Assembly: GCA_965214295.1 (NCBI GenBank)
Contig: OZ243944.1
Span: forward strand, 4,158,426 to 4,222,425
DNA length: 64,000 nt
Origin: Chloroflexota bacterium
GTDB lineage: Bacteria; Chloroflexota; UBA11872; UBA12225; JAJDUF01
Direction of reading: 5' to 3'
Made by a program: the position numbers and the translations under genes. Shown piece by piece: positions 5,080-49,273 of the stretch. The first letter of the stretch is position 1. Each line of letters starts with the position of its first letter. The notes beneath the pieces are model-generated. The model was not told where the DNA came from. It did no database searches and saw only the letters and a program-made list of their open reading frames with translations.

Positions 5080-6165
5080 ATGGTGATCGAAACAGCGCCG
5101 GCCGAGCCGTGGATTAGCCCCAGCGCACCGCAGGAGTTGCGTGCTCAAATGCGGCGTCCGATGCCGCTGGAAGGCCCCTTGGAGGATGCGTTCGGACGCC
5201 GTATCCGTAATTTGCGGGTCTCGCTCATTGATCGCTGTAACTTCCGCTGTACGTACTGCATGCCGGCCGAGGGCTTGGAGTGGCTGCCGCGCGACGAAAT
5301 CCTGACCTTTGACGAAATCGAACGGCTGGTGCGCTTGGCCGTAGCCCTGGGGATCGAGGAGATCCGCCTCACGGGCGGCGAGCCAACCTTGCGGCCTAAG
5401 CTACCGGAGCTGATCGCGCGCCTCGCGGCCGTCCCCGGGCTGAAGAGCCTGGCGCTGACCACTAATGGCTTCTTGCTGCGTAAGCTGGTCCCGGACCTGG
5501 CCGCAGCCGGTCTCACGCGCATCAACGTCAGTCTGGACACACTAGACGCGCACAAGTTCGCGGCGATCACGCGGCGGAACGCCATCAAGGCGGTGCTCGA
5601 CGGGCTGGCGGCCCTGGAGGAAGTGCCGAGCATCCACCCCATCAAGGTCAACGCCGTAGCCGTGCGCGGCTTCACGGCTGCCGATGACATTCTCGCTTTT
5701 GCCGAGCTGGCCCGGCGCAAGCCCTACGTCATCCGCTTTATCGAGTTCATGCCGCTCGACGCTGATGGCCATTGGGATCGGTTGCAGGTCCTGAGTGGTG
5801 AGGAAATCAAGCGCATTATCGAGCAAGTCTATCCGCTCGTGCCGGCGCGGGTTGCTGCGAGTAGCACGGCCCGCGTGTACCGCTTTGCCGATGGTCGCGG
5901 CGAGATGGGCTTTATCAATCCGGTGAGCCAGCCGTTTTGCGCCTCCTGCGACCGCATTCGCCTCACTGCCGACGGACAGCTCCGAACCTGCCTGTTCTCC
6001 ATTGACGAGACTAATATGCGCGACCCCATGCGGATTGGCGCTCCCGACAGTGAGCTGGAGCTGCTCCTGCGCCACGCCATCTGGCGCAAAGAGCTGAAGC
6101 ACCACATCAATGAAGGCCCGTCCTTCAAGCGCGCCTCGCGCTCGATGTCGCAGATCGGTGGCTAA
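5080..6165 (+). CDS. moaA: GTP 3',8-cyclase MoaA (molybdenum cofactor biosynthesis, radical SAM).
   Basis: CNFRCTYC radical-SAM CxxxCxxC motif and a C-terminal CASCDRIRLTADGQLRTCLF second-cluster motif, with MoaA-typical length and layout. Confidence 0.9.
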   Translation: MVIETAPAEPWISPSAPQELRAQMRRPMPLEGPLEDAFGRRIRNLRVSLIDRCNFRCTYCMPAEGLEWLPRDEILTFDEIERLVRLAVALGIEEIRLTGGEPTLRPKLPELIARLAAVPGLKSLALTTNGFLLRKLVPDLAAAGLTRINVSLDTLDAHKFAAITRRNAIKAVLDGLAALEEVPSIHPIKVNAVAVRGFTAADDILAFAELARRKPYVIRFIEFMPLDADGHWDRLQVLSGEEIKRIIEQVYPLVPARVAASSTARVYRFADGRGEMGFINPVSQPFCASCDRIRLTADGQLRTCLFSIDETNMRDPMRIGAPDSELELLLRHAIWRKELKHHINEGPSFKRASRSMSQIGG

Positions 6166-6353
6166 CGCGAGTTCAGATATCAGCCGTCAGCCAGCGGTGC
6201 GGCTGCCACCCGGAAGCCCGGGGCGCCCCCCAGAACGCGGCGGTGAGCAACGCCGGCCCGGCCCGGGAAATCAATAGGGGCACCACCCTGCCGAACACTG
6301 CCCCCCTACTTGGTCCCTTCTCCGGGACTGAGTCCCCGGCCAAGCGGGGACGG

Positions 6354-6542
6354 CTAGGCGCTGCGCGCTGCGGCGCGATAGACGTAGACCCCTCCAGCCA
6401 AGAGGACTACGCCGGCGACGGTCCCGACGATCTGTTTCCAGCCGAAGCCGGCGACGGAGAAAGGCAGCAAGTCCGCGCTAATCGCGACGATCAGCACGAT
6501 TGCCCCGACCACCATCAACTCGATACCAATGGACTTACGCAC
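6354..6542 (-). CDS. Possible small two-helix membrane protein (62 aa).
   Basis: The ORF encodes two hydrophobic helices (LMVVGAIVLIVAISA, IVGTVAGVVLLAGGVYVY). It lies in an otherwise unexplained 660-bp intergenic gap. There is no homology evidence. Confidence 0.25.
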   Translation of the reverse strand: MRKSIGIELMVVGAIVLIVAISADLLPFSVAGFGWKQIVGTVAGVVLLAGGVYVYRAAARSA

Positions 6543-6829
6543 CGTCTCAACTCCTTCCCCACACCGGGCACACTGCCACCGTCAACCGCTGCGCTCTCCG
6601 CAGGACCAACAGGCGCTTGGCAGCATGACGTACAATTAACAGGTGCTCCGGCGTGCAGGTCTCCATACGGATAGAAGCACCTACCTGCCGGAGGTGAGGA
6701 CCCCGATCCGCTAGTAGGATACTACCTTCCGCGCGACTTTATCTACCCCCGGCAGTCACCGGTCACGGGGGCGAGCAACAGCGGTAGTTTCTCCGGACAA
6801 GGATAGCGACCCGTACCAGGTAGGCTGGC

Positions 6830-21463: not shown

Positions 21464-23092
21464 CTAAACGTGCTCCGGGTGGGCACGGCGGGACTCGTCC
21501 AGCGGGATGGTGGTTGTGTCGAGAGTGGCGAGGTCCACCACGCGCAGCGCATGGTTGTTGGTATCGGCGACGAAGAGCTTGCCACGGGCCAGCGCCAGCC
21601 CGCCTGGCTCCGAGAACCGGGCCGCCGTGCCGACGCCATCGGTATGGGTGCCGGCCCCCGGCGCACCGAGCAGCGTCTTGGACTCGCGTGTGCGGGGATC
21701 GAGTCGCTTGATCTTGTGGTTGTAGGTATCGGCCACCAGGAGCGCCGGCCCGTCGGGTGCAGTAGGCCAGAGGCAGACAGCGAGCGGATGCTGGAGCCGA
21801 ACGCGCTCGGCGGTGGCGTCGGTATCGCCGAAATCGAACAGCCCGGTGCCGACTAACGTCGTTACTTGGCCGCTGTCCAGGTGGATCGCGCGGATGGCGC
21901 TCGTCTCGCTGTCCGCGGCGTAGAGCATGTCCCCCAGCGGATCGAGTGCCAGCCCACTCGGCTGCGCGAAGCAAGCCTCTTGTCGCGGGCCGTCGAGGAT
22001 ATCTTCCCGCCCGCTCCCGGCGAACGGTACGATGGCGCCGGTGGCCAGGTCGAACGCCCAGATTTGGTGCAACCCGGCCATCGCAATGAACAGCAGGCCA
22101 CGATCCGGGTAGTCCTGCTTCTCGCTATTGGCACCACCCCCGGCGGTGGCCGTCCGGGCCGGGTCGGGCAGCAGCGCCAGGTCCCACGGCGAAGAGAGGT
22201 CCGTTTGGCCGGCAGGACCGCCACCGCCGAACGAGCGCGCCTGCCGCCCCGTCCCGGCGATTGTCGTGACCGCGCCGGTGGCCGGGCTGACGCGACGGAT
22301 GGCGTGGTTTTCGGTGTCGGCAACGTAGACCGTGCCGGTGACGGGATCAACGGCCATCCCCTGCGGCCAGTGCAACTGCGCTTCCCGCGCCGGCCCATCA
22401 CGCAGCCCCGGCTCGCCCGACCCGATGAGATGGTGGACGCTGCCGTCGAGCGTCGCCAGCCCGGTGACGACGATGCGATGGTGATTGGAGTCGGCGACAT
22501 AGACGTGTCCGTTGCCGCGCTCGTCTACCGCCACCTTGCCGGGGAAGGCCAGTGTCTCCGTGGCCGGCCCGGTCTGCGCGGCCGGGCCGGTGGCGCCGAA
22601 GTCGAGTACGCGGCGGTCCAGCCAGCCGTGGGCGCCGAACTCGTCCAGCATGCGGTCAATGATCGGCGCCAGCTGACCGGCTGCGAACTCACCCTCATGC
22701 TTGCCGATGACCTTCCCCAAGGGGTCAACGAACATCAGCGTCGGCCAGGCGCGCACGCCGTACTGCTGCCAGATGGCGAAGTCGTGGTCGTTGACGACGG
22801 GGTGATGGATGGCGTGGCGGCGCACGGCCTGCGCGACGGCTTCGGTCTCCTGCTCTTGGGGAAACTTGGCCGAGTGGACACCGACGACGGTGAGTGTCTC
22901 GGCATAGCGCTGCTCCAGTTCCCGCAACTGCGGGAGGATATGTAAGCAGTTAATTCAGCAGAAGGTCCAGAAATCGAGGATCACCAGCCGGCCGGCGAGG
23001 TCGGCCAGCCGCAAGGGCCTCTCGGTATTGATCCAAGCCCGCCCGTCCGGAAACTCCGGCGCCCGCACTCGCCCGGCATATGCTGTCGTCAT
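21464..23092 (-). CDS. Thioredoxin-fold domain fused to NHL repeats (NHLRC2-like). An in-frame TGA at 22955-22957 falls at the first Cys of the CxxC redox motif. It is either a selenoprotein (UxxC) or a pseudogene.
   Basis: Own minus-strand translation from ATG 23092 (RBS GGAGGGAGGG): [79 protein letters not shown]... It continues in the same frame into the track ORF 21464..22927, which has Trx-fold motifs then about 6 NHL repeats. A hairpin (UCCCGC-AGUU-GCGGGA) starts 22 nt after the TGA. Confidence 0.55.
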
Positions 23093-23364
23093 CAAGACAC
23101 CCTCCCTCCACCCAGAGCATAGCGCAAGGTCAAGGTGAACGGAGCCGCCGAGGATTCAGTGGCAACCGCAAGCAGGAGTGGACGGCCTGAGCTGCCACTT
23201 ATCGGGCGTTGAGAATCCGGCTATTGAGCCATAGCATGTTCCCGGTGAGCCGCAGCATACAAGTGCAGTTTGGGCAGTCTGAGATGCCTTTGGGCACGGA
23301 TAGAACATCCATGGCGCAATTCCTTCCACCTTATGGAAGCTCATGCACTTACGATATTCTAGCA

Positions 23365-25941
23365 TCACCTGAGCTTGGCGCGGCGCAGGCGGAGGGAGTT
23401 GGTGACGACGGAGATGCTGGAGAAGGCCATCGCCGCGGCTGCAAGCATCGGACCGCCGAGGGCAGCGAGCAAGCCGAGCGCAGCCAGCGGAATCATCGCA
23501 GTGTTGTAGCCGAAGGCCCAGAAGAGGTTCTGCTGGATCGTCCGCATGGTCCGGCGCGAGAGGCGGATAGCTGCCGGCACACTCCGCAGATCGCCACGCA
23601 TCAGCGTGATCGCGGCCGTTTCCATCGCTACGTCGGTGCCGGTCCCCAGCGCGAAACCGACGTCGGCTGCGGCCAGCGCGGGCGCATCGTTGATACCGTC
23701 GCCGACCATGCCGACGACATGCCCCGCCGCGCGCAGCTTGGCGACCTCTGCCGCCTTGGCTTCCGGCCGGACCTCGGCGCGGACATGGTCGGAGGCGATG
23801 CCGACCGCGCGGCCGATAGACTCGGCGGCGCGGCGATTGTCGCCGGTGAGCAGGTAGACCTCCAGCCCTAGCCGGCGGAGTGCGGCGACGGCCGCAGCCG
23901 ACGTCGGCTTGACCGTATCGGCAATCCCAATGGCCCCGGCCGGCTTACCGTCAACGGCGACCAAAGCCACGGTACGGCCCTCCGCTTCCAGGTCGTCGGC
24001 CACCTGCACCCAGGGGGCACGAGACTCCCGCGTGCGCGGGAATGACGGGGCGGCGAAACCGCTGACGCCGTGCGCTGCCAGCAGCCGGGCAGTGCCGACC
24101 AGCACCTCGCTCCCCGCGACCTGGGCCGCGACGCCCTGGCCTGGCGTGACGACAAAGGCCGCCGGCTCAGGCAACGTCAGCCCGACCGTGCGGGCGTGGG
24201 CGACGACGGCCGCCGCGAGCGGATGCTCGGACCGCGACTCGGCCGCCGCGGCGAGCCGCAGTACGTCGGTAACGTCATGTCCATTCAGCGGTACCACGTC
24301 CGTCACTTGCGGTTGGCCTTCCGTGACCGTGCCGGTCTTGTCGAGGACGATGGCGGTGAGGGCATGTGCTCGCTCTAGGCTGGCCGCGTCCTTGACTAGG
24401 ATGCCCTGCTCGGCGCCGCGCCCTGTCCCGACCATAATCGCGGTCGGGGTAGCCAGCCCAAGGGCGCAGGGGCAGGCGATCACCAGCACCGTCACGGCCG
24501 TAAGCAGCGGTCCGGCTATCCCGCTGCCGCTCGATCCCAGCCAGAGCCACGCCATGAAGGTGAGTGCCGCCAGCGCCAGTACGACCGGGACAAAGACCGC
24601 CGACACCCGGTCGGCCAGGCGCTCGATGGGCGCTTTCGATCCCTGCGCCTGCTCGACCAGCCGGACAATCTGTGCCAGCGCAGTGTCGGCACCGACGCGC
24701 GTGGCCCGCACTGTGAGGGCGCCGTGCCGGTTGAGCGTCGCGCCGGTCACGTCGTCGCCCACCTGCTTGGTGACGGGCAAGCTCTCGCCGGTCAGCATGG
24801 CCTCGTCCACACTCGACTCCCCGTCGACCACCACGCCGTCTACGGGGACTTTCTCGCCTGGACGCACGAGCACGACATCTCCCACGCGCACCGACTCGAC
24901 CGGGACAGCGACCGTCTCGCCGGCACGGAGGAGCTGTGCCGTCTTTGCCTGTAGCCCGATCAACGCTCTGATTGCGGCACCGGCCCGGCCTTTCGCGCGC
25001 GCTTCCAGCCAGCGACCGAGCAAAATCAGTGTCACGATGACCGCCGCGGTCTCGAAATACAGCGGGGGATGCGCGGCGAGCGGTCCCTGCTCCGGGATAG
25101 CCACCGCCAGTGTATAGACGCTGTAGCCGTAGGCGGCAGCCGAGCCGAGCGCAATCAGTGTATCCATATTGGCGGCAAGGTGGCGTGCCATCCGCCCGGC
25201 CGTAGCGAAGAACTGCCATCCGCAGATGAAGACTACGATGGTCGTCAGGAGCAGCTCCAGCAGTGCGCTGCCGGGGAACCGCAGCATGAGCATACTCAGC
25301 GCCAGCACCGGCGCGGAGAGCAGCGCGGCCACGATGAAGAGACGTTGCTGGGACTGCGCGTAGGTCTCCGACCGCCAGAGCTGAACTATCCGCCGGGGAT
25401 CAAGGTGGTGCCGTTCCGGCGGGTCGTCCTTGCGCTCCGGTCGGCCGGCCGCCGCGCCCAACGTCTCTGCGCGACGCTCCGCGGCGCCATACCCGGCCGT
25501 CTCCACCGCGCCGACGACCGCCTGGGGAGGCGCGCTGCCTTGCACGGTGGCCGATTCGGTGGCGAGGTTGACTGCCACCGCCTGCACACCGGCAACCTTG
25601 CCGATGGCCCGCTCGACCCGGCGGGCGCAGGACGCACAGGTCATGCCGGTGATGGCAAGCTCCAGGGGCACCGCCGGTTGGGGGGGACGGGCTTTGTAAC
25701 CGGCGGCTGCGACGGCAGCGACCAGATCGTCTCGACCGGTTTGGTCGGGGGCATAGCGCACGGTCGCCTGCTCGGTGGCGAGGTTAACCGTAGCCTCGGC
25801 CACGCCCTCGACTTTGTTGAGCGCCTGTTGGACACGGTTGGCGCAGGAGGCACAGGTCATCCCCTCAATGGGGAACGTCTCGGTGACGAGCGCAGTCGGC
25901 ACTGGCGTTTCACTCACAGCCGTCTCTGGTGCTACAGCCAT
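23365..25941 (-). CDS. copA: Copper-translocating P-type ATPase CopA.
   Basis: Two N-terminal HMA domains ([22 protein letters not shown]), [30 protein letters not shown]. The start is taken at MAVAPETAV (25941). The 67 upstream codons of the track ORF are hairpin-repeat derived. There is an in-frame repeat insertion at about 24023-24050. Confidence 0.9.
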
Positions 25942-25996
25942 CGCAGTCTCCTTGGGCAGCCTCGCGCCGCACCATCGGCCCCCGTAATTGCGCCGC

Positions 25997-26084
25997 ACCC
26001 TCCCGTCATTGCGGCGCAGGCCGCAATCCAGGCCGCCCGGAGGCCCACGCATGGCCCTGGATTCCCGCTTGCGCGGGAATGACG
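25997..26084. repeat. Inverted pair of hairpin-A repeats between csoR and copA (GTCATTGCGGCGCAGGCCGCAATCCAGG ... CTGGATTCCCGCTTGCGCGGGAATGACGG).
   Basis: Direct reading. Confidence 0.65.
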
Positions 26085-26151
26085 GCCGGCGGGCTGGGGG
26101 AGGCCGGCAACCCCACCACCTGAATAAGGTGGCAACGTTCATCAGGCAGCC

Positions 26152-26424
26152 CTACCGCGTACTGGCGAACACGTCCATCAACTCTCGCAGCTTTTCCTCA
26201 CGCTCACGCTCGTCACCGCTGCGGATGGCCTCGGTGACACAGGACCGGACATGCTCCGCGAGCACCTGCTCCTCGACTTTCTCCAGCGCACGGCGGATGG
26301 CACGCATTTGGGTGAGCACGTCCATGCAGTAGCGGCCGTCCTCGATCATCCGCTGCACGCCGCGGACCTGCCCTTCGATCTTGCGGAGACGTCCCAACTG
26401 GCTCCGGTGCTGCTCATCCACCAT
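26152..26424 (-). CDS. csoR: CsoR/RcnR-family copper-sensing transcriptional repressor.
   Basis: 90 aa with GQVRGVQRMIEDGRYCMDVLTQMRAIRRAL (DUF156/CsoR fold; conserved Cys/His ligands). It lies immediately upstream of, and co-directional with, copA. Confidence 0.85.
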   Translation of the reverse strand: MVDEQHRSQLGRLRKIEGQVRGVQRMIEDGRYCMDVLTQMRAIRRALEKVEEQVLAEHVRSCVTEAIRSGDEREREEKLRELMDVFASTR

Positions 26425-40207: not shown

Positions 40208-41950
40208 ATGAACGTGTCGCTGCGGCAGTACCATGACCTGTTGGCGAGCTACCTCTGGCCCCAGCGCGGCCACGTCGCGCTCCTGGCGGTCTTCATCCTC
40301 GGCAACACCGGCCTGCTGCTCGTCACGCCGCAGCTGCTCCGCAGCTTCATTGACACCGCTCAGGCCGGCCAGGCTTTCACTGCGCTCGTGACGTTGGCAC
40401 TCCTCTTCAGCGGGGTAGCACTGGGTCAGCAGGTCGTTTCGGTGCTCGCCACCTACTTCAGCGAGCGCGTCGCCTGGACCGCCACCAACACCCTCCGCTC
40501 GGACCTGGCCCGGCACTGCCTGGGGTTGGACATGTCGTTCCATCACGAGCACCCGCCGGGCGAAATGATCGAGCGCGTGGACGGTGACGTGAATAACCTG
40601 GGGGCCTTCTTCTCCACGTTCACGATCCAGATCGTGGGGAGCTGCCTGCTTCTCATCGGCATTCTGGCGCTGCTCTTTCGGGAGGAGTGGCGGGCCGGCC
40701 TGGGCTTCACGCTGTTTGTGCTGTTCAGCGTGACCATCTTGCTGCGGCTGCGGAACATCTCGGTTCCCTATTGGCGGGCACGGAGCGAGGCCCGCGCCAA
40801 TATGTTCGGCTTTCTCGAAGAACGGCTGGCAGGTACGGAAGACATCCGCTCCGCCAAGGCGCAGCCCTACGTCTTGCGCCGGTTCTATGAGCTGACGCGC
40901 ACGTGGTTGAGCAAAGAGATGCGGGCCGGCCTGGCTATCGGCGTCTTCTGGAACACGAACGAGACCCTCTGGGCAGTCGGGAGCGCGGCGGCCTTGGCGC
41001 TGGGCGCCTATCTCTTCCTGGAGCAGGCAATCACGCTCGGCACGGTGTACCTGCTCTTTCACTACGCTACGATGCTTGTCCAGCCCATCAGCCGGCTGAC
41101 CCAGGAGCTGGAGAGCTTGCAGCACGCCTCCGCGAGCATCCTGCGGCTGGGCGAGCTACTCCGCACCCGCAGCACCATCCTCGACGGCGCGGGCGTGGCC
41201 TTCCCGGCCGGGGCACTGTCGGTCGAGTTCGACAGTGTGACGTTCGGCTACCACCGCGAGCAGGCGGTGTTGCACAACATCTCTTTTCGGCTGCTGCCGG
41301 GGAGGACCTTGGGCCTGCTGGGACGCACGGGGAGTGGCAAAACCAGTCTCACGCGCCTCGTGTGCCGCCTCTACGACCCGCACAGCGGCACGATCCGGCT
41401 GGGCGGGCAGGACATTCGGCAGTGTACCCTCCCGGACCTGCGCGAGCGCATTGGGATGGTCACGCAAAACGTGCAGCTGTTCCACGGCACGGTGCGGGAC
41501 AATCTGACCCTTTTCGATCCTGATATTTCGGACGAACGCCTGCATGCGGTCATTGCCGAGCTTGGTCTCGCGTCGTGGTATGCGGCGCTGCCCGATGGTC
41601 TGGACACCATGCTCGCGCACGACGGGGGCCTCTCCGCCGGCGAAGCGCAGCTGCTGGCCTTTGCCCGCGTCTTCCTGCGACCGGCCGGCTTGGTGATCCT
41701 CGACGAAGCCTCCTCGCGTCTGGACCGGGACACGGAGCGGCTGATCGAACGGGCGCTGGACAGGCTGGCAGCGGACCGGACCGTGATCGTCATTGCCCAC
41801 CGCTTGGCTACCGTGCAGCGCGTGGACGAGATCATGATTTTGGAGGACGGACTCATCCTGGAGCATGGCGAGCGGCGGCGCCTAGCCAGCGATCCGCACG
41901 CTCGCTTCCACGGACTGCTCCGGACCGGGCTGGAGGAGGTCCTGGCGTGA
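40208..41950 (+). CDS. ABC transporter, fused permease/ATPase (type I exporter, MsbA/MdlB-like), subunit 1 of a heterodimer pair.
   Basis: Six-TM N-terminal domain then Walker A GRTGSGKTS, signature LSAGEAQL, Walker B LVILDEASS, and H-loop AHRL. Confidence 0.85.
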   Translation: MNVSLRQYHDLLASYLWPQRGHVALLAVFILGNTGLLLVTPQLLRSFIDTAQAGQAFTALVTLALLFSGVALGQQVVSVLATYFSERVAWTATNTLRSDLARHCLGLDMSFHHEHPPGEMIERVDGDVNNLGAFFSTFTIQIVGSCLLLIGILALLFREEWRAGLGFTLFVLFSVTILLRLRNISVPYWRARSEARANMFGFLEERLAGTEDIRSAKAQPYVLRRFYELTRTWLSKEMRAGLAIGVFWNTNETLWAVGSAAALALGAYLFLEQAITLGTVYLLFHYATMLVQPISRLTQELESLQHASASILRLGELLRTRSTILDGAGVAFPAGALSVEFDSVTFGYHREQAVLHNISFRLLPGRTLGLLGRTGSGKTSLTRLVCRLYDPHSGTIRLGGQDIRQCTLPDLRERIGMVTQNVQLFHGTVRDNLTLFDPDISDERLHAVIAELGLASWYAALPDGLDTMLAHDGGLSAGEAQLLAFARVFLRPAGLVILDEASSRLDRDTERLIERALDRLAADRTVIVIAHRLATVQRVDEIMILEDGLILEHGERRRLASDPHARFHGLLRTGLEEVLA

Positions 41951-43767
41951 AGACCTGGCAGCACCTCTGGGGGCTGATCCGCTTCCTGCCGGGGCACTAC
42001 GGCAGCATGCTCGTCCTCCGCACGCTGTCCTTCGCGGTCGTGCCGAATGCGGTAGCACTGGCGAACCGAGAGTTCTTCGACAGCCTGACCGGCGAGGCCC
42101 AGTTCGACTGGGGGCCGTATACGATCATCGCGCTGCTGGTAGCGATTGCGCTGGCACGGATGGTCGCCATCTTTGTCGAAATCATCATCTTCTTCCTGTC
42201 CAGATTCACGATGGAAACACTGCTGCGCCGCAACCTGCTGGCGCACATCCTCGACCAACCCGGCTCGCAAGCACTGCCAGCCTCGCCCGGCGAGGCGGTC
42301 AGCCGCTTCCGCGGTGACGTGGAGGCCATCACGGAGTACATGGTGCTGTCCCCTTTCAAGGTGGCGCACCTCCTCTATGTCCCAGCGGCGCTCTTTGTGA
42401 TGCTCCAGGTCAACGCGCTCATCACGACCGTCGTGTTTCTGCCCCTGCTGTTCATCATCGTCACGGCCAGCATTGCGACGCGGCGGATTCGGCGGTACCG
42501 CCAGGCCAACCGCGAGGCGACCGGCAACGTGACGGGGTTCATCGGCGAGCTATTCCGGATGGTCGAAGCGGTCAAGCTCGCCACAGCCGAGGCGCGCGTC
42601 ATGGGCCGCTTCGATCAGCTCAACAAGATACGGCTACAGACCACCATCAAGGACCGGATGTTGAGCGCCATCCTGAACTCGATGTTCGATAACTCCGCCA
42701 ATCTAGGCACGGCCATCATCCTGATCCTGGTCGGCCAATCCATGCAGGCGGGGAGCTTCACTGTCGGCGATTTTGTGCTCTTCGTCTACTATCTCCAGCA
42801 GCTGACGTGGGTCAACCGCAACATCGGCTCGGCCTGGACCGAATACAAGCAGATCGGTGTCTCCATCGAGCGCCTCGTGACCTTGCTGGGAGACGCGCCA
42901 CCGCAAAAGCTGGTGGCACACAGCCCGGTCTACCTCCGCGGCGCGCTGCCGGAGGTGCCGTTCACTCCCAAGACGGCTGCCGACCGCCTGGTCAGTCTGG
43001 AGGCCTCGGGACTGACCTATCGCTATCCCGATTCGGGACGCGGTATCGCAGGCATTGATCTACGGCTAACGCGCGGGTCGTTCACGGTCATCACCGGCCG
43101 AATCGGCGCCGGCAAGACCACACTGTTGCGCGTCTTGCTGGGTCTCGTCCCGAAAGACGCGGGCGAGGTGCAGTGGAACGGCAGGCCGGTGGAGGCGCCG
43201 GCCACGTTCTTTGTGCCCCCGCGCTGTGCATACACGGCCCAAGTGCCCCGCCTATTCAGCGAGACGCTGAAGGACAACATCCTGCTGGGCTTGCCGGAAG
43301 ACCGGGTGAACATCCCGGCGGCCCTGCGGTCGGCCGTGCTGGAGCCGGACATGGAACAGTTGGAGCACGGTCTCGACACGCTCGTTGGCTCTCGCGGGGT
43401 CAAGCTCTCCGGCGGCCAAGCCCAACGCGCGGCGGCGGCGCGGATGTTCGTCCGCGATCCCGAGCTGCTGGTCTTCGACGATCTCTCCAGCGCCCTCGAC
43501 GTGGAAACGGAACGACAACTCTGGGAGCGCGTCTTCGCCCGTCCCGACGCAACCTGCTTGGTGGTTTCGCACCGGCGGGTAGCGTTGCATCGAGCCGATC
43601 ACATCATCGTGCTGAAGGACGGCCAGGTGGACGCGGCCGGCAGCCTCGACGAGTTGCTGGCGACCTCCGCAGAGCTGCAAAAGCTCTGGCAAGACGACCG
43701 CGGGACGGGAGCGGTGGATGGCGCGGCGCACCTATCCCTAACCTCCTCCCTGAAGGGAAGGGGCTAA
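41947..43767 (+). CDS. ABC transporter, fused permease/ATPase, subunit 2.
   Basis: GTG at 41947 overlaps the upstream TGA (GTGA). TM domain then GRIGAGKTT, LSGGQAQR, LLVFDDLSSALD, SHRR. Confidence 0.85.
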   Translation: MKTWQHLWGLIRFLPGHYGSMLVLRTLSFAVVPNAVALANREFFDSLTGEAQFDWGPYTIIALLVAIALARMVAIFVEIIIFFLSRFTMETLLRRNLLAHILDQPGSQALPASPGEAVSRFRGDVEAITEYMVLSPFKVAHLLYVPAALFVMLQVNALITTVVFLPLLFIIVTASIATRRIRRYRQANREATGNVTGFIGELFRMVEAVKLATAEARVMGRFDQLNKIRLQTTIKDRMLSAILNSMFDNSANLGTAIILILVGQSMQAGSFTVGDFVLFVYYLQQLTWVNRNIGSAWTEYKQIGVSIERLVTLLGDAPPQKLVAHSPVYLRGALPEVPFTPKTAADRLVSLEASGLTYRYPDSGRGIAGIDLRLTRGSFTVITGRIGAGKTTLLRVLLGLVPKDAGEVQWNGRPVEAPATFFVPPRCAYTAQVPRLFSETLKDNILLGLPEDRVNIPAALRSAVLEPDMEQLEHGLDTLVGSRGVKLSGGQAQRAAAARMFVRDPELLVFDDLSSALDVETERQLWERVFARPDATCLVVSHRRVALHRADHIIVLKDGQVDAAGSLDELLATSAELQKLWQDDRGTGAVDGAAHLSLTSSLKGRG

Positions 43768-44527: not shown

Positions 44528-45805
44528 ATGACAGAGCGCGGCCGCCAGCGCGTCGTCGTAACCGGCATCGGCGCCGTGACTCCCATCGGTACCGGCCGCG
44601 CAGGTCTCTGGGCGGGGGTCAAGCGGGGGCGGTCGGCCGTCGGGCCGGTGACGCGCTTCGACGCAACCCCCTTCCGCGCCCGCCTGGCCGCCGAGATCGG
44701 CGACTTCGATCCACTGGCTCACCTGGAATCCCGTCAGGCGCGCCGCCTGGATCGCTATGCCCAATTGGCCCTCGTCGCCGCGCGGCTGGCAGTGGACGAT
44801 GCTCGCCTCCACGTACCGGAAGGACGCCCCCGCAACCGCGCCGGGGTGTATCTGGGCAGCGCCCTTGGTGGCGTAGCCTACGCCGAGGAGCAGCACGCCG
44901 CCTTCCTGGCGCGAGGTGTGCGCGCCGTATCACCAACGCTGGCGCTGGCCGTCTTCGGTGGTGCCAGTGCCACCAATGTCGCGATTGACCTGGGCTGGCG
45001 CGGCCCCAACCTCACGAATGCCAATAGCTGCGCGTCCGGGGCAGTCGCGATTGGCGAGGCGTTTCGGCTAATCCGTGCCGGTGGCGCCAACGTCATGCTC
45101 GCGGGCGGGGTCGAAGCGCCGCTAGCTCCCTTGACCTTTGGCGCTTTTGCGCTCATCAAGGCGATGTCTACGCGCAACGACTACCCCGGCCGGGCGAGCC
45201 GGCCGTTCGACGCGGCCCGCGACGGGTTTGTCATGGGCGAAGGGGCCTGTATGGTGGTGCTGGAATCCCTTCCCCACGCGCAACGTCGCGGTGCCGACGT
45301 GCTCGGCGAGGTCGTCGGCTATGCCCTGACCAACGACGCGCACCACATGACGGCGCCGCGCCCGGACGGCCGCCAAGCGGCCCGCACCATCCGCCTGGCC
45401 CTGGCCGACGCCCGCCTCAAGGCCCACCGCATCGGTTATGTCAACGCGCACGGCAGCAGCACGGTGCTGGGGGATGCGGCGGAAGCGCGGGCGATCAGGA
45501 CCGGCTTTGGCCGCTACCTCACCCCGAACGCGCTGGTCAGCGCCACCAAGGGCCTCTACGGGCATCCACTCGGCGCGAGCGGCGCTATCGAGGCGGCCCT
45601 CACGGTCGAGGCGCTACGCACCGGCTGGCTACCCCCCACCACCAACCTGGCACAGCCCGACCCGGCGTGTACCTTGCCCCTGGTACCGGCCGGCGGACTA
45701 CACCGGCCGACGGACTATGCTCTGTGCAACACCTTCGGCTTCGGCGGCATCAACGCCGGCCTCGTCCTCGCCCGCCCCGGCGCCGGGGATGAGGGCAGCG
45801 CCTGA
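44528..45805 (+). CDS. fabF: 3-oxoacyl-ACP synthase II (KAS II, FabF-type).
   Basis: Active-site Cys context NSCASGAVAIGEA, His motifs (NDAHHMTAP, NAHGSSTVLGD), and C-terminal NTFGFGGINAGLVL. Confidence 0.9.
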   Translation: MTERGRQRVVVTGIGAVTPIGTGRAGLWAGVKRGRSAVGPVTRFDATPFRARLAAEIGDFDPLAHLESRQARRLDRYAQLALVAARLAVDDARLHVPEGRPRNRAGVYLGSALGGVAYAEEQHAAFLARGVRAVSPTLALAVFGGASATNVAIDLGWRGPNLTNANSCASGAVAIGEAFRLIRAGGANVMLAGGVEAPLAPLTFGAFALIKAMSTRNDYPGRASRPFDAARDGFVMGEGACMVVLESLPHAQRRGADVLGEVVGYALTNDAHHMTAPRPDGRQAARTIRLALADARLKAHRIGYVNAHGSSTVLGDAAEARAIRTGFGRYLTPNALVSATKGLYGHPLGASGAIEAALTVEALRTGWLPPTTNLAQPDPACTLPLVPAGGLHRPTDYALCNTFGFGGINAGLVLARPGAGDEGSA

Positions 45806-47842: not shown

Positions 47843-49273
47843 GTGCGTGAGCGACGTGTTGTCATCGTCGTGTGGGATGGCCTGCGGCCCGATCTGGCTG
47901 TCCCGGAGGTGACCCCTACTCTCACTGCAATGGCCGAGTGCGGCACCTGGGTACGCAACAGCTACTGTGCCTATCCCAGTGAGACGCGAGTCAACGCAAC
48001 ATCTTTGGCAACCGGCTGCCAGCCGGGGCGGCACGGCATCGTCGGGAACAAACTGTACGTACCTGAAGTTGATCCGCATGGCGCCGTCGTGACCGGCGAC
48101 GCCGCGACGCTCACGGCCATTGCCGAGCGTGATCCGCCGCTCGTCGCTGTGCCCTGTCTGGGCGACTACCTCGCCGAGGCCGGCAAATCCGTTATTGTCG
48201 TGAGCAGTGGTTCTCCCGGTTCAGCTTGGTTGAGCAATCCCCGTCCCCAGGACCACCTCTACAACCAAGCGCTGGTGCGACCGGCGGCGGCCCAGGCTGC
48301 CGTGGCGCAGCGCTGGAAAGTGCCACCGGACCGGCTTGAATGGCAAGCGCGCGTCTGCACCGAGCACGTCTGGCCAGCCTTGCAACCCGATGTGACGGTC
48401 TGCTGGCTGACCGACCCGGATCATACACAGCATCGCTTCGGTTTGGGCGCTCCACAATCGCGCAATGCTCTCCGGGGCTGCGATGCCATCCTCAGCCGAC
48501 TGCTGGTGTCGCTGGACCGGCTCGGCTGGCAGGACAACACCAATGTCATCGTCACATCCGACCACGGCTTCACCACACGCCGGCCGCAGTACGAGATAGA
48601 CCCCATAGCGGCGCTCGCATCCGATGATGTGATCGTCAGCGGCGGGGCCATCTATCTGACGAGCGAGTCCGCTGACCGAGCAGCAGCTATCGTCCAGACC
48701 TTGCAAGACCACCCTGCGGTCGGCGCCATCTTTGCTGCCGATGATGGCCCGGCAGCCCGGCGGCCCGGCACGCTGCCCCTTTCGGTGGCCTGGGGAGGCC
48801 GCCTGCACCGTCGTCGTCCTGACATACAGTGCTCACCGGTATGGTGGGACGACACGAATGAGCATGGTGTGCCCGGCTACGCTGCCGGGCCGGCCGGAGC
48901 CGGGCACGGCTCGACCTCTCCCCGCGACTTGCGTAATGCCCTCATCCTGGCCGGCCCAGACGTGCGTAGCGGGACGACGAGCGATATTCCGGCCGGGCTG
49001 ATTGACGTTGCGCCAACGGTCCTCGCCATGCTGGGCCTGCCAGTGCCGGCTACGATGGATGGTCGGGTCTTGACCGAGGCGCTGCGACCCGGAGTAGTCG
49101 GAGGGGCGGCCACGCCACCACCGGCGCCGCAGTCCGAGACCGCCAGCGCGTCAGTCTCGATGACCACCGGTGGCAGCTATCGGCAGTGGGTTCGTCGCGT
49201 GCGCGTTGGCCCGACCTGGTACCTCGCAGCCGCCGGCGCCGAGCGCGACCGAGCGCCGGCTAGACGTAGCTGA
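47843..49273 (+). CDS. Alkaline-phosphatase-superfamily enzyme (type I phosphodiesterase / nucleotide pyrophosphatase-like).
   Basis: VVIVVWDGLRPDL N-terminal metal-site motif, catalytic nucleophile context (ETRVNATSLATG), and the VTSDHGF metal motif. GTG start with AGGAG upstream. Confidence 0.75.
   Translation: MRERRVVIVVWDGLRPDLAVPEVTPTLTAMAECGTWVRNSYCAYPSETRVNATSLATGCQPGRHGIVGNKLYVPEVDPHGAVVTGDAATLTAIAERDPPLVAVPCLGDYLAEAGKSVIVVSSGSPGSAWLSNPRPQDHLYNQALVRPAAAQAAVAQRWKVPPDRLEWQARVCTEHVWPALQPDVTVCWLTDPDHTQHRFGLGAPQSRNALRGCDAILSRLLVSLDRLGWQDNTNVIVTSDHGFTTRRPQYEIDPIAALASDDVIVSGGAIYLTSESADRAAAIVQTLQDHPAVGAIFAADDGPAARRPGTLPLSVAWGGRLHRRRPDIQCSPVWWDDTNEHGVPGYAAGPAGAGHGSTSPRDLRNALILAGPDVRSGTTSDIPAGLIDVAPTVLAMLGLPVPATMDGRVLTEALRPGVVGGAATPPPAPQSETASASVSMTTGGSYRQWVRRVRVGPTWYLAAAGAERDRAPARRS

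Follow-up and report, generated by a model that had tools for sequence, protein, structure and literature searches.

A conserved in-frame UGA in a thioredoxin/NHL-repeat gene of a Chloroflexota bacterium and its probable decoding as selenocysteine

Can a UGA codon that interrupts the redox motif of a thioredoxin-like protein be decoded as selenocysteine (Sec)? This question was raised by a minus-strand gene at 21464-23092 of a 64,000-nt stretch of Chloroflexota DNA (GenBank assembly GCA_965214295.1, contig OZ243944.1, positions 4,158,426 to 4,222,425 of the forward strand). The whole stretch is referred to as the window, and coordinates are window positions unless another locus is named. Judged from comparative sequence data, the gene very probably encodes a Sec-containing protein of 542 aa of the NHLRC2/SOQ1 type, with a thioredoxin-like (Trx-like) domain and NHL repeats, in which UGA46 would be translated as Sec via the canonical route. 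The evidence consists of the in-frame UGA, its conservation opposite Cys in homologues, selection on both sides of it, a covarying hairpin specific to the UGA forms, use of the standard genetic code and homology to SOQ1 and NHLRC2.

Reading frame and position of the UGA

Translation of the minus strand from the ATG at 23092-23090 proceeded in one frame to 21464 without a frameshift. The frame held 543 codons with a single internal stop, the TGA at 22957-22955 in codon 46, and continued through it into the 487-aa NHL open reading frame (ORF), as claimed in the original prediction. That prediction had also stated that the ORF track misses the gene by splitting it at the TGA; the list indeed contained the two pieces 22950-23120 and 21464-22927. 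All of its coordinates and sequence statements were correct when re-read on the minus strand. A strong Shine-Dalgarno-like sequence, GGAGGGAGGG, was located 5' of the ATG at 23092 and supports this codon as the true start, and not the TTG at 22927 used in the ORF track. The gene comprised the following features.

21464..23092, minus strand: full recoded coding sequence (CDS), 542 aa, M1...C45-U46-I47-N48-C49...V542, with the stop TAG at 21466-21464
23100..23109, minus strand: Shine-Dalgarno-like sequence, 7 nt upstream of the ATG at 23092, read from the sequence
22955..22957, minus strand: UGA in frame at residue 46, proposed to encode Sec, leading position of the U-I-N-C redox pair
22946..22948, minus strand: TGC for Cys49, from the translation, putative resolving Cys of the UxxC pair
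22919..22936, minus strand: hairpin resembling a bacterial selenocysteine insertion sequence (bSECIS), 5' arm 22936-22930, AGUU loop 22929-22926, 3' arm 22925-22919
22709..22993, minus strand: thioredoxin-like (TlpA/DipZ-like) domain, residues 34-128, Pfam PF13905 (Thioredoxin_8), E 1.4e-15
22738-22746, minus strand: W116-P117-T118, conserved, with P117 invariant in alignment A1
21515..22564, minus strand: NHL-repeat beta-propeller, residues about 177-526, Pfam NHL, E 4.6e-30

According to the original prediction, the TGA takes the place of the leading Cys in the C-I-N-C pair of a Trx domain of the NHLRC2 type. This was borne out by alignment with the CCINC motif of SOQ1, which reads ILDFWTYCCINC at the active-site stretch in the PDB alignment. 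U46 was aligned with the second Cys of this motif, corresponding to C431 of SOQ1 and C90 of NHLRC2, both proposed to act in disulfide exchange; in NHLRC2, CCINC comprises residues 89-93 (PMC6107167). The predicted identity as a thioredoxin-fold and NHL-repeat protein held as well, with Thioredoxin_8 at residues 34-128 followed by the NHL repeats. The T and G of the Cys49 codon were invariant across 51 Sec-form sequences (columns 16-17 of alignment A2).

Conservation of the UGA and of the downstream hairpin

Scanning one genome for each GTDB species with an alignment of mostly Sec forms identified 80 related loci as best matches. The aligned codon was TGA in 53 loci and TGC or TGT (TGY) in 25, with one CGC, one CAA and neither TAA nor TAG, the TGA share of 53/80 being inflated upward by the Sec-heavy query alignment. 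A metagenome scan was carried out with a TGN pattern, which left the third base free and was less biased. Among the first 120 matches listed, 14 carried TGA, 106 carried TGY and none carried TGG. Alignment of orthologues, as suggested with the original prediction, therefore revealed a Sec/Cys pair at the TGA column in both sets. Close relatives with an intact CxxC in place of the TGA, which would have pointed to a recent mutation, did not occur. The closest relatives, L001, L004 (OZ250185.1) and L007 with 90-92% identity, all kept the TGA, as did relatives down to about 50% identity.

TGA forms were present in many Dehalococcoidia metagenome-assembled genomes (MAGs), in Sphaerobacter, in Ardenticatenia and in Thermosporothrix hazakensis ATCC BAA-1881 (L032, NZ_QKUF01). 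Outside the Chloroflexota, they were detected in three Candidatus Fervidibacter genomes, one Gemmataceae MAG and one Methylomirabilales MAG. Candidatus Fervidibacter sacchari PD1 (L027, NZ_CP130454.1) carried the TGA form on a complete chromosome. In a neighbour-joining tree, the short-form Chloroflexota clade consisted mostly of Sec forms. In Ktedonobacteria, Sec and Cys forms were interleaved, and the Sec forms from other phyla were nested among those of Chloroflexota. This pattern fits repeated exchange of Sec and Cys with some horizontal transfer.

The protein search yielded thousands of homologues. Those above about 56% identity were nearly all 460-505 aa long, with 88-91% query coverage, and the inspected truncated ones started at MHILPQL, MLPQLRE or LRELE, a few residues past the TGA. 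Only P0005 and P0006, with 60-63% identity, were full length in this range, and they contained FWTFCCINC. On two contigs found by protein identity, a separate gene of 44-45 aa was called directly upstream; reading through it gave ...DFWTFC*INC... with the same TGA. N-terminal truncation of homologues with 56-92% identity, together with the separate upstream mini-gene, is the signature of gene callers halting at a conserved TGA.

Both sides of the TGA, the N-terminal segment of 45 aa and the C-terminal part of 496 aa, were conserved in one frame. Across 41 codons upstream of the TGA, comparison with the relatives at 90-92% identity showed 8-10 synonymous and 3-6 non-synonymous differences, so the 45-codon upstream segment is under purifying selection. 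Its peptide APEFP...W(I/L)N...L.GK.V.LDFWT stayed conserved to about 50% identity and was recognisable down to about 45% overall identity. A lone in-frame stop in one assembly would, taken alone, be compatible with a recent nonsense mutation (a pseudogene) or with a sequencing or assembly error. The identical TGA was found in 53 genome loci and 14 metagenome contigs from independent assemblies, at 92% to about 45% identity; the genome loci came from several classes of Chloroflexota and three or more further phyla. Purifying selection acts on its flanks, and covariation links an RNA hairpin to it. Mutation or error is thus extremely improbable, and the recurrence of the TGA in dozens of independent assemblies excludes it for practical purposes.

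Variants of the motif were observed at single loci. L079 (3130-3201) encoded A-U-I-N-C, indicating that the Cys before Sec is dispensable. Four Cys forms, L042, L044, L062 and L073, read G-C-I-N-C. L052 encoded C-R-I-N-C with CGC and L065 encoded C-Q-I-H-C with CAA; both are probably redox-dead copies.

The original prediction had further proposed a hairpin of 6-7 bp after the UGA. It was found at 22935-22920, beginning at nt 23 counted from the U of the UGA, and the fold was recovered by RNAfold. The outermost pair of the window hairpin was a C/A mismatch, so that 6 bp were formed, UCCCGC-AGUU-GCGGGA. The hairpin alone had a folding energy of -11.2 kcal/mol. The bSECIS model describes a loop of 3-9 nt, an upper stem of 4-16 bp, a G among the two leading loop bases, mostly with G or U next to it, a distance of 16-37 nt from UGA to loop and a minimum free energy of -7.5 kcal/mol or below (PMC13188914). 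With its AGUU loop, 6-7 bp, spacing of 25 nt and -11.2 kcal/mol, the window hairpin agreed with the model in every respect.

Pairing was counted in an alignment of 51 distinct TGA forms, with 500 shuffles and with registers slid by 1-3 nt as controls. No indels were present between TGA and hairpin. The 18 nt at positions 22-39 from the U of the UGA were almost invariant, YYNCCGC-AGUU-GCGGNRR, and this near-invariance extended to the third bases of the codons for Leu/Phe/Ile, Pro, Gln, Leu (always UUG) and Arg. Hairpin cells were paired in 95.5% of cases, compared with 34-71% in the slid registers, where covariation was also lower. Changes on both sides were seen in four of the seven pairs, comprising 29 cells, and none of the 500 shuffles was as good. 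In the most telling pair, a third position that changes synonymously was matched with the first base of a codon downstream, with the variants CUU...AAG (U-A), CUC...GAG (C-G) and CUG...CAG/CGG (G-C). Compensations in the inner stem were UCGC/GCGA in Thermosporothrix and GCGC/GCGC in a Ktedonobacteraceae MAG. Different hairpins were located at the same place in L002 (CUCCCU-GGUCUG-AGGGAG) and in L075 and L080 (CCUCC-CGGAGCU-GGAGG). RNAalifold recovered five of the seven pairs in alignment A2 with a weak consensus energy of -1.95 kcal/mol, and the explicit pair counts were therefore relied on instead. A search of Rfam at gathering thresholds, and a permissive one over 22850-23000, yielded no meaningful match and no bSECIS family.

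In Cys forms, the same columns were paired to only 33-40%, versus 84% in the metagenomic TGA forms, and the peptide at the hairpin site varied (IPDLKR, LDELRP, LAQLRE). One Cys form with TGC, L090 (1031-1062 and downstream, plus strand), kept P-Q-L-R-K and six of the seven hairpin pairs, CUGCCGC-AGCU-GCGGAAG. Its sequence suggests that Sec was recently converted to Cys and that the SECIS element is decaying. The conserved TGA with its Cys homologues and the covarying hairpin together supported the selenoprotein interpretation of the original prediction.

The same data bear on a split gene, in which translation would stop at the TGA to give a 45-aa peptide and restart at the TTG at 22927 to give a 487-aa protein lacking the active site. 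Gene callers annotate it in this way in many assemblies, and the hairpin could in principle modulate re-initiation. Such a split would sever the thioredoxin fold within the active site. The Cys-containing homologues are single polypeptides, and both halves are under purifying selection as one indel-free frame. The stop was always TGA and never TAA or TAG, and the hairpin tracked the TGA. No Shine-Dalgarno-like sequence or conserved start was evident downstream, and the called starts varied between homologues. A split gene is therefore scarcely credible.

Decoding machinery, genetic code and the inserted residue

Beside the query bias of the genome set, several results weigh against decoding as Sec. 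ARAGORN detected only a tRNA-Val and no tRNA-Sec in the window, and no tRNA-Sec in 1.34 Mb of related loci, with the flanks of 203 loci covered. By tblastn, neither the 64-kb window nor this 1.34 Mb contained a homologue of Escherichia coli SelA, SelB or SelD. For the single sequence, the 71 nt following the UGA gave a weak folding z-score of -0.97. The hairpin also largely overlapped the conserved peptide P-Q-L-R, so part of its conservation could be coding constraint.

These results differ in consequence. The window represents 64 kb of a genome of roughly 4 Mb, so the absence of the machinery from it is uninformative. The z-score means that significance is not shown by one sequence alone, and the argument is carried by the comparative data. 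Coding constraint as the explanation is argued against by covariation at a third position and by the joint loss of peptide and pairing in Cys forms. Dehalococcoidia MAGs were among the most selenoprotein-rich bacteria in BSepDB (PMC13326102), which establishes Sec use in the phylum Chloroflexota. We infer that the Sec machinery is present in the organism, that selenium is inserted and that the protein is biochemically active.

Partial matches to E. coli SelB were observed at L039, L052, L060 and L074, at about 5440-6760 of these loci, with about 30% identity over the N-terminal 300-380 residues in tblastn. They were located about 1 kb downstream of Cys- or Arg-form genes in Dehalococcoidia loci. 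Only the N-terminal, GTPase/EF-Tu-like part of SelB was aligned, and the matches most likely represent another translational GTPase.

The genetic code was assessed from the stop codons of the window. TGA terminated 16 of the 32 long coding-like ORFs, which indicates the standard code and requires any recoding to be local. Genome-wide reassignment of TGA as sense, known from genetic codes 4 and 25, would make local recoding unnecessary; it was ruled out by this stop-codon usage. When the window was scanned for further in-frame TGAs flanked by coding-like sequence, only neighbouring genes in the same frame (e.g. 17729 and 27765) and weak candidates came up besides the Trx-NHL gene, and the homologues carry Cys at the aligned position, not Trp or Gly. 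The probability left to reassignment is negligible. Two of the weak candidates had coding-like GC content at third codon positions on both sides, 45803-45805 (plus strand, 425 and 148 codons) and 48833-48835 (minus strand, 24 and 203 codons). Both are probably ordinary stops or chance.

A further alternative accepts recoding via the same hairpin and differs in the residue. SelB-dependent Cys recoding systems exist, and Cys could be inserted by a SelB-compatible tRNA with a UCA anticodon; near-cognate read-through with Trp or Cys is another route. The product would be an ordinary CxxC protein. The comparative data demonstrate recoding and an RNA element, not which amino acid enters, and no Sec machinery was seen in the window and related loci. 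Against this, the UGA replaces the catalytic Cys of CxxC, a typical Sec position, the hairpin agrees with the bSECIS model, and the taxa concerned, Dehalococcoidia and other Chloroflexota, are reported to be rich in selenoproteins. A costly UGA and hairpin would also have been kept across many lineages for the sake of Cys, although TGC and TGT are one mutation away. Insertion of another residue is thus very unlikely, and Sec is preferred.

Domain architecture, genomic context and comparison with known systems

With Cys put in for the stop, the Trx-like domain also scored on the Pfam models AhpC-TSA and Redoxin (PF00578 and PF08534). P117 was assigned as a putative cis-Pro from the WPT context, not from a residue-level match. 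The propeller followed directly after the Trx-like domain, with continuous alignment to 7djj, 6gc1 and 6g7w over residues 177-531. The NHL region was aligned with 7djm/7djl, the NHL construct of SOQ1 (177-526), and with 6g7w, the propeller of NHLRC2 (180-531). According to Pfam and these solved propellers, the predicted NHL domain fits a six-bladed propeller. The best solved relatives were the lumenal Trx-like/NHL domains of Arabidopsis SOQ1, 7djj (E 8e-113), and human NHLRC2, 6gc1 (E 6e-104), covering residues 10-526/531. DipZ 2hyx was the closest single-domain thioredoxin relative, with E 1.2e-18 over residues 11-134.

No recognisable signal peptide was present in the 542-aa protein, which is therefore probably cytoplasmic. 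The C-terminal beta-stranded (nDsbD-like) domain with its redox Cys pair was absent, and the protein ended 11-16 residues after the propeller alignment. Most Sec forms were equally short, having about 45 aa ahead of U and 441-498 aa behind it. L041 was an exception, and a C-terminal extension was present in one Ardenticatenia form. The nDsbD-like domain is not conserved across homologues (PMC6107167); being variable, it does not define the wider NHLRC2/SOQ1 family.

Two further observations concerned the termini. The Fervidibacter Sec forms L024, L026 and L027 had an extended N-terminus, about 76-125 codons upstream of the TGA, that included a hydrophobic stretch, e.g. MWRILTATAIITMILISVGMMLQRT. 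These forms may thus be a Sec-containing variant that is anchored in the membrane or exported, in contrast to the short forms of Chloroflexota without signal peptide. The subclade of the window protein (homologues P0001-P0040, including the Cys members P0005 and P0006) ended in a conserved tail ...(I/L)D(E)(S/T)RRAH, encoded at 21467-21499 on the minus strand. More distant short forms terminated in ...TLE(L/I)xGL instead of the RRAH-type tail.

Directly upstream of the selenoprotein gene and on its strand was a gene for a heavy-metal P-type ATPase of the CopA type with two HMA domains (23365-26142), across a gap of 270 nt, and ahead of this a gene for a metal repressor resembling CsoR/RcnR (26152-26424). 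After the selenoprotein gene came a Uma2-family gene and then PALP, M24 and LarA genes. The window was syntenic with the closest relative, L001; the csoR-copA neighbourhood was present only there, and L002 had different neighbours. No functional inference was drawn from a neighbourhood common only to the closest relative, and a link of the selenoprotein gene to copper stress is speculative. A conserved operon was not seen in the NHLRC2 study either (PMC6107167). Elsewhere in the window, two long coding-like ORFs on the plus strand, 40208-41950 and 41575-43767, overlapped by about 375 nt. The overlap may come from a start that was wrongly assigned, from a frameshift or from a programmed event.

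The 2026 catalogue comprised 119 selenoprotein families of prokaryotes, subfamilies included, and Table 1 held no NHL, NHLRC2 or SOQ1 entry among these 119 (PMC13188914). 'NHL' occurred zero times in the selenoprotein papers PMC1794560, PMC13188914, PMC13326102, PMC2398784, PMC9312934, PMC9402790 and PMC12013277. A Sec form ('selenocysteine', 'selenoprotein') was not mentioned in the NHLRC2/SOQ1 papers PMC6107167, bioRxiv 10.1101/2021.03.16.435614 and 10.1101/2024.11.01.621559. No relevant paper came up when the literature was searched for NHL, NHLRC2 or SOQ1 in combination with selenocysteine or selenoprotein, or for Sec in Fervidibacter or Sphaerobacter. No NCBIfam model reached its cut-off for the Trx-NHL protein, and family members named by NCBI were ORFs truncated at the TGA. 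Annotation thereby removes the active site from the truncated database entries. The Trx-NHL selenoprotein family is apparently uncatalogued, the 'Redoxin family protein' and 'thiol-disulfide isomerase-like' families having been compared by their listed names and domain IDs; prior capture under a generic Trx-fold name is possible. On balance, we lean towards a widespread uncatalogued family of Sec orthologues of NHLRC2/SOQ1 in several Chloroflexota classes, with spread to Armatimonadota (Fervidibacter), Planctomycetota and Methylomirabilota. If other pipelines also miss the gene, Chloroflexota selenoproteomes may be undercounted.

Such a family would be relevant to NHLRC2, an essential human protein that is mutated in FINCA disease. 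Its Trx-like domain was inactive in an insulin reduction assay, and the authors suggested that it does not take part in thiol-disulfide exchange (PMC6107167). In the plant homologue SOQ1, function is lost on mutation of either Cys (C431S or C434S), and the proposed exchange with the C-terminal domain involves C431 (bioRxiv 10.1101/2021.03.16.435614). A 2024 preprint reported that the lumenal domains of SOQ1 are redox-active and reduce methionine sulfoxide (bioRxiv 10.1101/2024.11.01.621559). Sec is recruited almost only at catalytic redox positions, and its occurrence exactly at C90/C431 in a large clade of bacterial orthologues argues for a catalytic nucleophile across the family. If confirmed, a natural Sec at this position would represent independent evolutionary evidence that the disputed CCINC motif provides the catalytic nucleophile, and the bacterial Sec enzymes would offer hyper-reactive tools in the search for the substrate of the family.

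In the proposed mechanism, translation would start at 23092. SelB with Sec-tRNA(Sec) would bind the hairpin at 22936-22919 inside the CDS, with 25 nt between UGA and loop, and deliver Sec to the ribosome stalled at UGA46. Within the active site C-U-I-N-C, Sec46 would be the N-terminal nucleophile of UxxC and Cys49 the resolving residue. The Trx-like active site would face the cleft it forms with the propeller, which would bind the substrate protein. Sec46 may then attack a disulfide or sulfoxide on the propeller-held protein, Cys49 would resolve the selenenylsulfide or selenenic intermediate, and a cellular reductant would regenerate the site. The recoding steps are strongly supported by the comparative evidence, and we infer the chemistry from the family. 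By analogy, the protein most likely acts as a thiol/selenol-based reductase; disulfide exchange and repair of the methionine-sulfoxide type are possible activities.

Overall, the mechanism is an ordinary one: UGA, bSECIS hairpin and UxxC in a thioredoxin fold are of a kind known from more than 110 families. As in the bSECIS model (Zhang & Gladyshev, per PMC13188914) and E. coli fdhF, the stem-loop is located within the ORF just 3' of the UGA, and it has a small apical loop of 4 nt whose second base is G, with U after it. It differs in its family-specific sequence YYNCCGC-AGUU-GCGGNRR, and no conserved lower stem or bulged U was demonstrated. The nearest catalogued families, generic Trx-fold UxxC families (Table 1, PMC13188914), likewise hold Sec at the N-terminal CxxC position, a bSECIS in the CDS immediately downstream, and Cys homologues. 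The domain IDs listed for them are single Trx-fold models with no NHL propeller named, and in this listing the window protein differs from them.

SOQ1 and NHLRC2 (PDB 7DJJ/7DJK; 6GC1) have in common with the window protein the two-domain core of a TlpA/DipZ-like thioredoxin and an NHL beta-propeller. The active-site context is alike, DFWT(F/Y)C-[C/U]-INC, and W-P-T is kept. Unlike these proteins, the window protein carries Sec in place of the first Cys of CxxC and has no C-terminal nDsbD-like domain with its Cys pair. The HAD domain and transmembrane helix of SOQ1 and the N-terminal extension of NHLRC2 are also absent from it. The C-terminal Trx-like domain of Mycobacterium tuberculosis DipZ (2HYX/5CYY) contains the related motif S-C-I-N-C (PMC6107167). 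DipZ itself is a membrane-anchored reductant-transfer protein that has no NHL propeller and uses Cys, whereas the window protein is predicted to use Sec.

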